This document shows, piece by piece, positions 43,518-48,474 of a stretch of DNA of 64,000 bases (positions are counted from its first letter, which is position 1; the number at the start of each line of letters is the position of its first letter). The notes beneath the pieces were generated by a model that searched no databases, was not told the DNA's origin, and saw only the letters and a list, made by a program, of their open reading frames with translations. The DNA comes from Escherichia coli (GTDB lineage: Bacteria; Pseudomonadota; Gammaproteobacteria; Enterobacterales; Enterobacteriaceae). The stretch lies in the NCBI RefSeq assembly GCF_013122565.1, contig NZ_CP053258.1. One strand, written 5' to 3'. Position numbers and translations under genes: made by a program.

Positions 43518-43877
43518 TCATATATCGAAAATTTTTTTCAGAGTTGAATGTATTTCATATTTTGTGCTTTCATTAATGTTTATTGAAACTTCCTGGCTAT
43601 GGTTCCAATGAAATACCTCCGTAGACTCTGGAATGAAATATAATTTCAATATCGAACCAGAAATTAAATATTTGAGACTAGTGGTTTTTTTGCCATAAAT
43701 TTGGTCCTGAGCTTCAATATATATAATATCCGGATCTTCAAATTCATCACGAGAGATAGAAATATATCGAGGAGGATCCAAATTAACCCATAATGTTACA
43801 GCATAGAGTCCATCATCCTCAAAATCTTTATCAACCAGAACATTTAAAGCCTCCATGTCAAATCTCATCATTAACAT
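43518..43877 (-). CDS. Predicted cognate immunity protein of the main Rhs toxin
   Basis: 119 aa, AT-rich, overlaps the rhs stop by 7 nt. Confidence 0.6.
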
Positions 43878-46800
43878 CCTCTACTATTGTTTTTGAATCC
43901 CTTACCACCATCACGAACTTTTCTAAAATCACCGCCTTTAAAGCTATATATATTTCCTGTAACCTTTTCATGGATCGTAAGTTCGTCAAGTCCTAAGTGT
44001 TGTGCCATATTTTTTAGACTCCTTTTACAAAATCCGCAAATTTCTTTACCCTCAACAGTTAAGGTCGCTGAGCCACCACGAAGCCCTGCATCATGAGCCT
44101 GTAGCATTGCATCAATTTCAGCGTGCATATCAAATCGACTATTATTTGGACCAGACATTCCCGAAAGAGTTGGACCATCAATTCGCGGAACACGCTCGGT
44201 CGGATTAACACCAGTAAACACCTGCCCAGCCATTTCAAAAATGGCGTCAACAGTAGCTAACCCCAACGGATCGATCCAGCTAATCGGATTCGGCGCATAC
44301 CTGTAAAGATTCAGACCGCCACGGATCGAAATCGGATCCTGACTGATAAACCTCCCGCACTCCGGCGCATAATACCTGAACAGATTGTAATGCAGCCCCG
44401 TCTCTTCATCATAATACTGCCCCGGCAGCCGCAGTGGTTGCTCAAAGTACGCCCCGCTGTTGCTGATGTCGCCCCGGTTTTCGCCAAATCCCGCCTGGTA
44501 GCCCGCCCACACCAGCGTCCCGTCCGGCGCGGTCACCTCCTGTACCGTGCCCGTCAGGTCCGTGTGGTAATACCAGATTTTTTGACTCTCTCCGCGCCCC
44601 GTGATGGCTGCCACCGGCGTGTACGGCTGTTCCGCGTCGTACAGGTATGTCCGCTTCCCCTGCCACGTTGTCTCCTGTAACAGCCGGAACCCTTCCCACA
44701 CAAACGTTGTCCGCCGCTGTTCCCTCTGGTCCGTATGGCGGCCATATGTCGCCTTGCTGATACGCCTGCCCAGCGCATCGTACTGATACCGCGTCTCGCT
44801 GTTGCCGCTGATGACCCGCGTTAACTGGCCCTGCGCGTTCCACTCCAGTTGCTGGTCCCTGCGCTCTGTCAGTTCGCCCCATTCGTTATAGCGGTAGCGG
44901 TCACGCCCGTAGCCCGGCAGGCGGTTATCCGGCACCGCTCCCTGATGCTCATCCGTCAGCAGATTGCCCGCTTTGTCGTAATAATAATGGTCATGGTCGT
45001 ACATCTGACCCGTGCGACTGGTCAGCCAGCCGCTGCGGTCATAGCTGAACACCAGGCAACCGCGCAGTTTGTCATTGATGCCGCCAACTTCACCGTCTGC
45101 GTTCCAGATATAGTCCCGCGCTGTCACGCTGTCGCTGTGTGACGGGGGTGTGGCTGTCTGCTGTGGGTTCTGGCTGCCGCCTGGCAGGCTGCGCTGCCAG
45201 CTTAACCGGTTGTCGGCGTTGTAGCCGCTGAACGTCGCCAGTTTCCCCTGGGTGCGCATCACCTGACGGTGCAGACTGTCACGCTCATATTCGCTGACCG
45301 TGATACCGTCCAGCGCTGTCTGGAGCAGATGCCCGCTGCCGTAGTAAAGATGGCTGAGGTGCTGCCCGTCCGGTAACGTGATGTCGGTGGGATTGCCCAG
45401 CGCGTCACGCTGATATTTTATGCTGCCGTGCACGCTGTGCTCTGCCGTCAGCCACCCGCTGCGGTCATACGCAAAGCGCACCGTGTCCGCCTGCATGTGG
45501 TGCAGCCGTTCCCCTTCTTTCGTCGGGGTGAGCGTCACTTCCGTTATCTGGTCAAGACGGTTGTAGCTGAAGGTCCGTGTACTGTGCTGCGTGTCACTGC
45601 GCAACAGGCGGCCCAGCGCATCACGCTCCTGTCGCTCATTACGCACCCCGCCTTCTGTACCCTGCGTCTGGATGATGACCGGATACCCGCCCGCATTCAG
45701 CACAAACATCCGTATCAGACCGTCCGGGCGCTGTTCTCCCGTCAGCCGTCCGTCCGCATCGTGACTGAACCGGTAAAGCGCTCCGTTGCCGTTGCTCAGA
45801 CTGGCAATCCATCCCTCCGCGGTATAATGCCAGCGCGTCTCCCGTTTCTCTTCATCCGTATGGAGCGCCAGCAACCCGCGCGGCGTATACTGCCAGGACT
45901 GTACGCTGCCCGTGATGCGACGGTGGCTGCTCAGTAACCCCAGCGCGTTCCAGGTGTAACGGTCCTGCTGTTTACCGGGGTGGCTGACCGTCTCCGGCAG
46001 CCCCAGACGGTTATAGCTGATGCGTACCGTTTTCCCTTCCGCGTCCGTCACCGCCGTCAGGTTGCCGTCTTCATCGTATTCATAACCCGTGGCACGCCCT
46101 GAACAGTCGGTGTAACGCGTCAGTTGACCACGCGCATCGTGCGCCAGCGCAACCTCGCCGCCCCGCGCATCCGTGCGGCTGACCGCCAGCCCCTGTTCAT
46201 CATACCCGTAGCGCGTGACGCGCCCTTCCGGGTCCGTCTCCCGTATCACCTGACCGTGTTCGTTGTAATCCGCCTTCCATACGTGGTCGTCATCCAGCGC
46301 CCGGCGCGTGATTTCAGCAAAGCTGCCGTTCCACTGCGTCTGTGTCACCCGGCCTGCCGGGTCCGTCTCTTTCACCACCCGGCTCAGGGTGTCGTATTCC
46401 AGCGTTACCCTGCGTTCGCCGGGGAGTTCCACCGCTACCGGAAAATGGTTTTCGTTGTAGGTGAAGCGGTACAGTCCGCCGCCCGGCGTCCGGTGAGCAG
46501 TCACATACGTGTCTTCATCAAACCACCAATGCCACTTATGCTCCGGCCTGCCGGTTACCACCGTCTGCCCACCAGCAAAATCATAGTGGAACCGGTAATC
46601 CTCACCGTCGCTGGTTGAGTGCTCCACCACCCTGGGAAACCCCTCAATCTCTTCCCAGCGGTAGGTACAGGTAAAGCCCGTCGCGTTGCAGTGCTCTGTC
46701 ATCAGGCCATTTTCATAGGCAAACTGGCGCACCGTCACACCGGCCCCGTTCACCACGCCAGTCAGTTGCCCGTTATCGTCGTAGCGATATTCCACCAGGT

Positions 46801-48010
46801 TACCGGGACGCCCGCCTTTCACCAGTTCAATATGCGAAAGTCTTTCCCCCGCCGGTGTCATTGTCCGGTGCAGTAACAGATGGTGCCCGCTGCTGGAAGC
46901 CACCCGCACCAGCCTGCCGTTCTCACGCCCGAAAGCAATTCGCTGCCGGTACGGTGTTTCCATAAAAAGTAACGGTGCGACGCCGTGGTCATCAAACTCA
47001 TCAAACACGTAGTAGCTGCGGTCGGTGTAATGCAGCACATAGCGTCCGTCATGCAGGCGGCTAAGGTAAAACTGCTCTTCGGGGTCAAATATCTGGTGGC
47101 CCGGTGTCAGCATCTCTTTCGGATAACTCAGTTCCCGGCCCTGTACACCGATGAAGGTGATATATGTTTCATCCTCACGCAGGTTTATCTCCCAGTTCAG
47201 CCGCCATCCTCTGCCCAGCAATCCTTCAGTTTCCAGATGGCTGGCATAGAAGCGCGAACAGGTGACGGGCAGGCGTCCTGGCAGGGTGAAATCCGTCTCC
47301 GGCAACAGAATTTTTTGCCCGGTAGTGACATCCACCGGGTTGCTGAAAAAACCCATCGCTGCCTCGGAGACACCCATCCCGACCAGTTGCCCGCCAATAA
47401 ATTTTGCCGCGCATTTGGTGCCGAATTTTGTCCCCAGCTTTGCCGCCTGGCGTGCAGCTCCGGCAAGTCCGCCAAGCATTCCGGCGACCACATACAGCAC
47501 ATCCACCACCTGACGCAGCCAGTCAGGAATTTCCGGGCTGATTTCCAGTACCGTCTGCGTACCGCCGCCGAGAAAGACATTGGGGGAGCCGTCCTCAATC
47601 ACTGCATCACACTCAGTGTGGTCATCCTTACGGGCAGCTGGCTGGCTGTTGATGTAGATGTTGCCGGAACCCTGGGCAATGCGGATTTCCGGGGAATGGT
47701 CTTCGCATATCACCGTACTCAGTACGGCCCGGGCGGCCGGGCGACTGTTGGTGCTGACATTATCAGAACCGGTCAGAATTTTTCCCACTGTGGAATGTAT
47801 CGAGCGCCCAATGGCTTCTCCCAGTTGCAGGACTCCGGAAGCTATCTGATCTGCCAGAAAACTCAAAATCAGCCCGGCCAAGAAGCCGCAGGTAAAAAAA
47901 GCAAAGCTGGCGACGGCAATAATGGCGATACCTATGATGGCCCCTATCAAAAACCCGGCAAGGGCGCTGGTGTGGTAGATGGGATCATCCACCCGTGCGG
48001 CTTCATACAT
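43871..48010 (-). CDS. rhs: prePAAR-TMD-PAAR Rhs effector (1379 aa) with YD-repeat shell and deaminase-like C-terminal toxin domain
   Basis: N-terminus [13 protein letters not shown] (AARxxDxxxH prePAAR motif) followed by hydrophobic helices and a PAAR region ([18 protein letters not shown]); long YD-repeat core; DPLGL; tip ...[10 protein letters not shown]...EICGFCKRS (HxE then CxxC ~28 aa later). Confidence 0.8.
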
Positions 48011-48030
48011 GACAAAACCTCCCTGTTTTT

Positions 48031-48474
48031 TTAGCTTTTAGCAGGCTGAAAACTGGTCAACCATGCAGTCCATAGCTGGTCGGTGTGCTCATCAAAAGGA
48101 CGCTGACTGGTCAGCGTCAACACCAGAACCTTTGCTGGCCCGGTGATAAACCCGGCCTGACGCTGGTACACTTCTGTTTTTCCAGAACGATGAGTTGCGA
48201 GAATCTGTTCACCTGTCATGGCAGCTTCGCCCGTTCCCGCCAGTGCCGTTCCCCGCGAAAGTACCCGGTGCTGGCCCAGGTTTTTTTTCATCAAGGCTAT
48301 CTGGCGGTCAATATAGGTGGTCAGATTTTCATCTGGCCTGAGCGTATCGCGGGAAATATTCAGACTGGGAGTTGCCCTTTCATTGCCCGACGGGACGAAG
48401 ATATTGACGGTGCGATCAAGAAAAGTTTCAGGCAGGGCAAAGCAGCCCTCCTGAATACGGTAAAGGCTGGTCAT
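48031..48474 (-). CDS. EagR-like (DUF1795) chaperone for prePAAR-TMD effectors
   Basis: 147 aa, [27 protein letters not shown]...; located between vgrG and rhs as expected for Eag chaperones. Confidence 0.7.

Follow-up and report, generated by a model that had tools for sequence, protein, structure and literature searches.

The minus strand of a 64,000-nt stretch of the Escherichia coli contig NZ_CP053258.1 (the window; all coordinates are window positions) carries a compact operon which, according to the list of open reading frames (ORFs) and their translations, has the order vgrG, eagR, rhs and a small ORF. The C-terminal tip of the Rhs protein and the product of the small ORF represent, very probably, a functional deaminase-fold toxin and its cognate immunity protein. 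For the locus as a whole we favour, with some reserve, an antibacterial effector module (vgrG-eagR-rhs-immunity) of type VI secretion system 1 (T6SS-1) with a tip acting on DNA cytosine. The domain architecture, the deaminase fold, the catalytic residues and the homology and adjacency of toxin and immunity gene are established by the present analysis. Parts of the picture are already known: the Deam_C family is curated in Pfam and InterPro, the locus type was described in 2017, and a Salmonella Deam_C fragment was surveyed in 2026. New are the finding of the tip on an intact, deliverable carrier, the immunity fold homologous to DddBI, and the pairing of both proteins across phyla. The features of the operon are the following.

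48498-50711, minus strand: vgrG, 737 aa (NCBIfam TIGR03361 VI_Rhs_Vgr, E 2e-166; TIGR01646, E 3.4e-124)
48031-48474, minus strand: eagR-type chaperone gene, 147 aa, DcrB/DUF1795 (Pfam PF08786, E 2.7e-35, residues 9-141)
43871-48010, minus strand: full-length rhs effector gene, 1379 aa plus stop (ORF list, translation, YD repeats, Rhs_assc_core, PAAR)
47831-48010, minus strand: prePAAR motif (residues 4-13) and first transmembrane region (residues ~15-60) (Pfam prePAAR_I PF25799, hydropathy, translation)
47570-47797, minus strand: PAAR domain, residues 72-147 (Pfam PAAR_motif, NCBIfam T6SS_PAAR_dom)
47345-47518, minus strand: putative second, weaker hydrophobic glycine-rich region, residues 165-222 (inspection, hydropathy)
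44258-47341, minus strand: DUF6531 plug and Rhs/YD-repeat cage, ending with QDPI, 21 residues and DPLGL (Pfam, TIGR03696)
43874-44257, minus strand: deaminase toxin tip, residues 1252-1379, 128 aa, low G+C
44117-44125, minus strand: HAE, residues 1296-1298, start of helix 1 (H45 and E47 invariant in the family alignment)
44027-44038, minus strand: CGFC, residues 1325-1328, start of helix 2 (C74 and C77 invariant in the family alignment)
43518-43877, minus strand: candidate immunity ORF, 117-119 aa, its start overlapping the rhs stop codon

The deaminase tip

The Rhs core model TIGR03696 spans residues 1184-1251 and reaches its end (position 76 of 76) at L1251 of WIDPLGL. Because the core model ends there, the tip was defined as residues 1252-1379. 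An earlier note on this DNA, made from the sequence alone, had described a tip of ~135 aa after DPLGL, with HAE followed 28 residues later by CGFC as the zinc-deaminase signature (HxE...CxxC). The tip and both motifs are indeed present, but the tip measures 128 aa and 26 residues lie between HAE and CGFC (29 positions from H to the first C).

In Pfam the tip matches Deam_C (PF24241, InterPro IPR057580, "putative cytidine deaminase, C-terminal domain") with an i-Evalue of 1.4e-15 and a score of 57.9, covering model positions 31-127 of 136. The second-best match, MafB19-deam (PF14437), is weak (E 0.11), Pput2613-deam (PF14427) gives no match to the tip at any E<=10, and no NCBIfam model matches tip, immunity protein or chaperone. 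When 1.84 billion representative proteins were searched with a profile, about 100 domain relatives were among the 150 matches listed, and 46 of these relatives, down to 29% identity, were used for the family alignment. The sole invariant columns in the 46 homologues are H45, E47, C74 and C77 (tip numbering), i.e. those of the signature. Deam_C is matched at E<=0.001 by 45 of the 46, MafB19-deam by 12, while Pput2613-deam reaches E<=0.1 in just three. Because of the Deam_C score and the invariance of these four residues, HAE and CGFC are evidently not a chance match, and the proposed signature could be confirmed at the level of the family. We take H1296, C1325 and C1328 to be the zinc ligands and E1298 to be the proton shuttle, as in established deaminase chemistry.

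The AlphaFold2 model of the tip has a mean predicted local distance difference test (pLDDT) of 74 and a predicted template modelling score (pTM) of 0.71. Its order of elements is beta-beta-alpha-beta-alpha-beta-beta, and the three-layer alpha/beta/alpha core (beta1-beta2-alpha1-beta3-alpha2-beta4-beta5) is present. HAE and CGFC sit at the N-termini of two model helices (46-56 and 75-87), and the two C-terminal strands pair as a hairpin (92-97/102-107). Foldseek gives PPR-DYW, T4 dCMP deaminase and DddB as best PDB matches. A fold unrelated to the deaminases is thus not what we find in view of the Deam_C match and the invariant catalytic residues, and deaminase chemistry of the tip is strongly supported by family profile and predicted fold.

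For the MafB19-like clade of Iyer et al. (2011) the published signature comprises an N after strand 2, HxE, a V ending strand 3, +xxCxxC, a G before strand 4 and a C-terminal beta-hairpin (PMC3239186). Inspected against the published text and not the authors' alignment, the tip has N18, H45-E47, V68, K71/C74/C77, G89 and the hairpin mentioned above. The contexts reported for this clade, T6SS, RHS and haemagglutinin fusions (PMC3239186), are also those of the tip family. However, the immunity proteins listed for it are SUFU and SUKH (PMC3239186), whereas a DddBI-like fold is predicted here. The Pfam version of MafB19, to which the E value of 0.11 refers, differs from the profile of Iyer et al. 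(NEB study, bioRxiv 10.1101/2023.06.29.547047).

In the close subfamily of the tip a Cys is found within the last 1-5 residues, directly after a conserved GGKGF(K) (window 43874-43900). The wider family keeps GGK without the C-terminal Cys, and the pLDDT of the tip model is <50 in this part. The subfamily-specific Cys could be regulatory, an extra metal ligand or one partner in a disulfide.

The immunity protein and the relation to DddB-DddBI

The candidate start codons of the ORF at 43518-43877 overlap the rhs stop codon (ATGTTAATGATG); the start is likely the ATG at 43871, giving 117 aa, and the immunity gene is translationally coupled to rhs. The protein is acidic (isoelectric point (pI) 4.55, net charge -10), the tip has a pI of 8.0, and neither Pfam nor NCBIfam contains a match for the immunity protein. 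Homologues of toxin and immunity protein are found in the same genera. In every related locus in which both are present (ten counted), an ORF of the immunity family lies directly 3' of the tip, among them loci of E. coli XJ34, Cronobacter dublinensis (three loci), Trabulsiella, Citrobacter, Pantoea and Paracidovorax. In Prevotella, Pedobacter and Saprospiraceae more divergent ORFs follow the tip, which have the motif Y-x-E-x-x-D-Q in common. This motif (YIEAQDQ here) is nearly universal in the immunity family, and E54 and Q58 (119-aa numbering) are invariant, also in the Bacteroidota homologues. The pairing of toxin and immunity gene is therefore conserved across phyla (Proteobacteria and Bacteroidota). 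One Burkholderia genome has the immunity gene alone, inside an immunity island.

The model of the immunity protein matches DddBI, its sole strong structural relative, and has the features of the DddBI type: an acidic two-sheet sandwich with a C-terminal helix, encoded beside the toxin. By its predicted structure it is a clear homologue of DddBI. Because it adjoins the tip in other genomes and its model matches DddBI, the reading of ORF 43518-43877 as the cognate immunity gene is supported. Together with the Deam_C match and the invariant residues, these data speak for the interpretation as a deaminase toxin given in the earlier note.

DddB-DddBI (BaDTF3, Pput_2613-like) is the pair of a Taylorella equigenitalis YD-repeat toxin and its antidote (PDB 9k3e; Yin et al. 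2026, PMC13346905). DddB is specific for double-stranded DNA (dsDNA), and Tyr59 and Glu61 of DddBI lie over its active site (PMC13346905). The spacing of these two residues (i/i+2) is that of Y-x-E in the present family, a likeness of spacing and not of alignment. Because DddB is among the best PDB matches of the tip model and DddBI is the best match of the immunity model, both halves of the module best match the two halves of one characterised pair. This link is made through predicted folds, because PDB sequence searches gave only marginal matches to dCMP deaminases: neither the tip nor the 46-sequence family profile retrieved a toxin deaminase, DddB included, and the profile reached only dCMP deaminases (E 0.004, marginal), aligned precisely over HAE...CxxC. 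DddA-DddAI (BaDTF1, SCP1.201-like) and SsdA-SsdAI (BaDTF2, DYW-like) are structurally farther from the tip than DddB, and DddA and SsdA belong to other Pfam families and have other carriers. The immunity protein SsdAI is all-helical (PMC7901873), unlike the two-sheet model obtained here.

As the immunity fold suggests, tip and immunity protein may share ancestry with the DddB-DddBI pair. That the Deam_C tips as a whole form a distinct branch of interbacterial DNA deaminases, of the same ancestry as DddB-DddBI and with a different substrate-binding insert, we put forward as a doubtful possibility.

Carrier, proposed delivery and probable substrate

The 1379-aa Rhs protein is identical to RefSeq WP_250880426.1, a protein which in an exact-sequence look-up is carried by one contig. 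Residues 4-13 fit AARxxDxxxH (prePAAR_I, E 6.5e-24, residues 1-53) and residues ~15-60 are strongly hydrophobic (Kyte-Doolittle values up to 2.7 in a 19-residue window), in agreement with the prePAAR start and the N-terminal helices that had been noted before. The PAAR domain is recognized by PAAR_motif (E 3e-15, residues 72-138) and T6SS_PAAR_dom (E 4.7e-7). Residues 165-222 are glycine/alanine-rich and hydrophobic, and a single 19-residue window reaches 1.6. The plug DUF6531 (E 6.9e-21, residues 224-296) is followed by many RHS_repeat matches, and both aspartates of the C-terminal autoprotease motif are present (QD1225PI and D1247PLGL). The product thus has the YD-repeat cage, the core ending in DPxGL, the variable low-G+C tip and the downstream immunity gene of Rhs polymorphic toxins.

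Class I prePAAR Rhs effectors reportedly consist, following the work of Ahmad and colleagues from 2020, of prePAAR, a transmembrane region, PAAR and a second transmembrane region, with an adjacent Eag gene and a cognate vgrG. Here prePAAR, transmembrane region and PAAR are found together with an adjacent Eag gene and vgrG, and we assign the product of 43871-48010, as judged from these domains, to this class. The DUF1795 (EagR-like) gene which the earlier note had seen upstream is present at 48031-48474, and its exact product is found in RefSeq as "DcrB-related protein"; the product of vgrG is predicted to form the T6SS spike on which the PAAR-Rhs effector rides. The proposed T6SS delivery context (prePAAR, transmembrane region, EagR, VgrG) is consequently borne out by domain matches. 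The gaps between the genes are 23 nt (vgrG-eagR) and 20 nt (eagR-rhs). Promoter and terminator scans were at chance level (6 promoter-like sites versus 6.3 expected) and were not used.

Loci of the type vgrGO1-eagR-PAAR-Rhs-CT are known as T6SS-1 effectors of E. coli (Ma et al. 2017, as related in PMC6730261 and bioRxiv 10.1101/2024.03.05.583533). According to the same two sources that work describes, from bioinformatics, a "deaminase clan" among the Rhs-CTs as well as an "Rhs-MafB19 deaminase" that has an immunity gene of its own, and the experiments which they relate concern only Rhs-CT1, CT3 and CT5, none of them deaminases. The architecture of these loci is identical to that of the locus in the window, whereas the cassette of tip and immunity gene differs and is rare.

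The following sequence of events would be consistent with the motifs; its delivery steps are those established for class I prePAAR Rhs effectors and Tc/Rhs cages, and secretion, autocleavage, substrate and killing are what we infer for this locus. In the producer cell the DcrB/DUF1795 chaperone would shield or stabilise the prePAAR transmembrane helices, the PAAR domain would cap the VgrG spike, and the Rhs cage would enclose the 128-aa tip, which the cage's own aspartyl autoprotease would free by a cut after DPLGL. After firing, the transmembrane regions may aid the tip across the inner membrane of the target. There, in a zinc-dependent reaction, the tip would deaminate cytosine in nucleic acid (DNA most probably) to uracil. 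Uracil excision would lead to abasic sites and breaks and thereby to cell death, and survivors would carry C:G-to-T:A mutations. The acidic 117-aa immunity protein would protect the producer, probably by masking the active site together with the face that binds nucleic acid, in the manner of DddBI on DddB.

DNA cytosine is, by analogy, the substrate that we consider fairly probable for the tip. The three studied interbacterial families, DddA, SsdA and DddB, are toxic and mutagenic DNA cytosine deaminases (PMC7901873, PMC13346905), and therefore DNA is the first candidate here. In a screen of 175 enzymes polymorphic toxin systems were the source of nearly all bacterial deaminases that proved active, and its five families, including MafB19 and Pput2613, used DNA as substrate, often both single-stranded and double-stranded (bioRxiv 10.1101/2023.06.29.547047). 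This points in the same direction, and so does the resemblance of the antidote to a DNA mimic.

Several points weigh against this reading. The tip model is only moderately confident, and between the sequences of tip and DddB there is no detectable similarity. MafB19-deam, the second-best Pfam match, is close to tRNA adenosine deaminases. PDB searches with two immunity profiles retrieved no immunity protein, 9k3e included, and we found no published activity, toxicity or secretion data for any Deam_C member. Finally, DddB engages the minor groove of dsDNA by a helix-hairpin-helix before the zinc-binding His (PMC13346905). At this position, before HAE, the tip has a 28-residue insert that carries the conserved N18 and P37-N38 (tip numbering) and is modelled as coil (pLDDT 53-57), with no predicted helices and hence no predicted helix-hairpin-helix. 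Because Pput2613-deam does not match the tip and the insert is a low-confidence coil, the dsDNA specificity of DddB is not transferable to the tip, and we regard activity on dsDNA as possible but somewhat doubtful.

The tip might instead be directed against RNA, editing tRNA, rRNA or mRNA (C-to-U or A-to-I) and so blocking translation. We consider this unlikely, as the sole strong structural relative of the immunity protein is the antidote to a dsDNA-specific enzyme and the three experimentally studied families of interbacterial deaminase toxins all act on DNA. Deamination of free nucleotides or nucleosides (e.g. dCTP/CTP or another base), which would deplete or corrupt the pools, is very unlikely for a tip that does not have the oligomerisation elements of cytidine and dCMP deaminases, whose family is fused to Rhs, haemagglutinin-type and YD-repeat proteins as in polymorphic toxins, and whose antidote resembles DddBI, itself described as a DNA mimic.

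Orphan cassettes, neighbouring genes and significance

The Rhs core has a G+C content of 0.61, which drops to 0.33-0.40 over tip and immunity gene. The DNA of vgrG, eagR and the Rhs core is 93-97% identical to other E. coli loci, and the point at which homology to other E. coli rhs genes is lost is precisely the DPLGL codon boundary (nt 44258). The cassette of tip and immunity gene is present in only two of 5,426 complete E. coli genomes (XJ34 and XJ6-3), in both as a 5'-truncated orphan which PGAP names "cytidine deaminase-like fold-containing protein". Dozens of draft-genome contigs contain the truncated toxin (85-100 aa), and dozens the intact immunity gene. In one of the Cronobacter genomes the carrier rhs is broken, and Salmonella has fragments 64-88% identical to the tip. 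The 2026 survey reported such a Deam_C protein of 77 aa, QS34_17685, as candidate effector in VR3 of Salmonella SPI-6, with an adjacent immunity gene and a low-similarity Foldseek match to DddB (PMC13304343). While the Salmonella and most E. coli members of Deam_C are short orphan fragments, the tip of the window is fused in frame to a complete prePAAR-PAAR-Rhs protein behind vgrG and eagR, i.e. in a deliverable configuration.

This distribution raises the question of a decayed or silent cassette, with a non-functional tip or a locus that is not expressed or fired, since elsewhere in Escherichia and Cronobacter the same tip is mostly found on 5'-truncated orphans or a broken rhs and the cassette is so rare in complete genomes. 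However, in the window the rhs frame is open throughout its 1379 codons, all catalytic residues are kept, the immunity gene is conserved and translationally coupled, and the gaps from vgrG to rhs are only 20-23 nt, so that we find a decayed or silent cassette quite improbable and retain the interpretation as a functional toxin with its immunity protein.

A scan of about 100,000 species genomes found nine loci of the close subfamily in Proteobacteria, Bacteroidota and one Streptococcus. Carriers in the wider family are Rhs proteins of Vibrio and Neisseria, filamentous-haemagglutinin-type proteins and a YD protein of 5454 aa. In two large protein databases 12 of the 14 matches of the close subfamily are <=200 aa long. 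The rarity of the tip as judged from protein databases proved to be an artefact: WP_250880426.1 itself sits inside a cluster whose representative has another tip. Because the clusters at 90% and 50% identity place full-length Rhs proteins under representatives that have other tips, only fragments seem to exist. About 40 positions of the profile used on the 1.84 billion representative proteins belong to the Rhs core, and therefore most of its 4,203 matches represent the core and not deaminases.

Downstream of the operon lie four orphan rhs 3' fragments (35170-43312, minus strand; identified by Rhs core matches) with distinct tips and downstream ORFs.

41474-43312, minus strand: orphan 1, tip of the HNH nuclease family Tox-SHH (Pfam E 4.4e-25); SUKH/SMI1 immunity gene at 40976-41464
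39360-40820, minus strand: orphan 2, tip weakly similar to GIY-YIG (E 0.0036); next ORF leucine-rich-repeat-like, 283 aa, at 38489-39340
36699-38315, minus strand: orphan 3, tip without clear family (weak DUF7587)
35170-36297, minus strand: orphan 4, LHH nuclease tip (E 2.8e-8), followed by an ORF at 34730-35179

Including the main gene, the 3' end of the core is present in five direct copies, 87-99% identical and in register at DPxGL. Judged from these repeats, the fragments would represent a classic substrate for tip switching by recombination. Outside the core repeats a 242-nt direct repeat (89% identical; 34493-34734 and 40724-40965) has one copy just 3' of the ORF of the last orphan and the other just 5' of the second orphan fragment; a duplication of the cassette may have left it behind.

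On the other side of the operon, in low-G+C DNA between T6SS core genes and vgrG, two paralogous HExxH proteins are encoded on the minus strand (53178-53984, 268 aa; 51119-51820, 233 aa). Each gene is followed by a paralogous ORF of 120-128 aa with an N-terminal hydrophobic, signal-like segment (52819-53181 and 50736-51122), and a truncated 5' fragment of vgrG (52033-52794) lies between the pairs. In this region (50736-53984) neither the HExxH proteins nor their partner ORFs have a Pfam or NCBIfam match; from their arrangement they look like duplicated effector-immunity pairs of the metallopeptidase type. Beside tagF and tssM a 156-aa ORF (54758-55228, minus strand) has a weak match to FlgJ-type peptidoglycan hydrolases (E 4e-4), and the ORF after it (54312-54773, minus strand; 153 aa) begins with a signal-like segment. 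These two may be a further, cell-wall directed effector-immunity pair.

The housekeeping region at 14000-24000 (pepD, frsA, phoE, dinB and others) has <=97.7% identity to any of the 5,426 complete RefSeq genomes of E. coli. Because all of them stay below 99%, the source strain would seem to represent a divergent E. coli lineage outside that collection.

The module combines a very small predicted deaminase with a matched protein inhibitor, which eases the cloning of a toxic enzyme, and at the fold level the pair is related to DddB, which was recently made into a mitochondrial base editor. If the tip deaminates dsDNA with a context preference of its own, the 128-aa domain and its inhibitor would be a compact scaffold for CRISPR-free (e.g. 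mitochondrial) base editing and for footprinting. It is therefore a reasonable candidate for enzymology and base-editor mining, though no surprise to the specialist. While most public genomes have decayed orphans with an intact immunity gene, the cassette of the window is in the "armed" position on a full-length rhs, and it illustrates how orphan arrays serve as store and exchange of toxin tips. Should the tip act on DNA, this lineage of E. coli would possess a contact-dependent weapon that kills rivals and mutagenises the survivors, as shown for DddA, and gut Escherichia would be a further setting in which T6SS fire can drive C:G-to-T:A mutation, including mutation to resistance.

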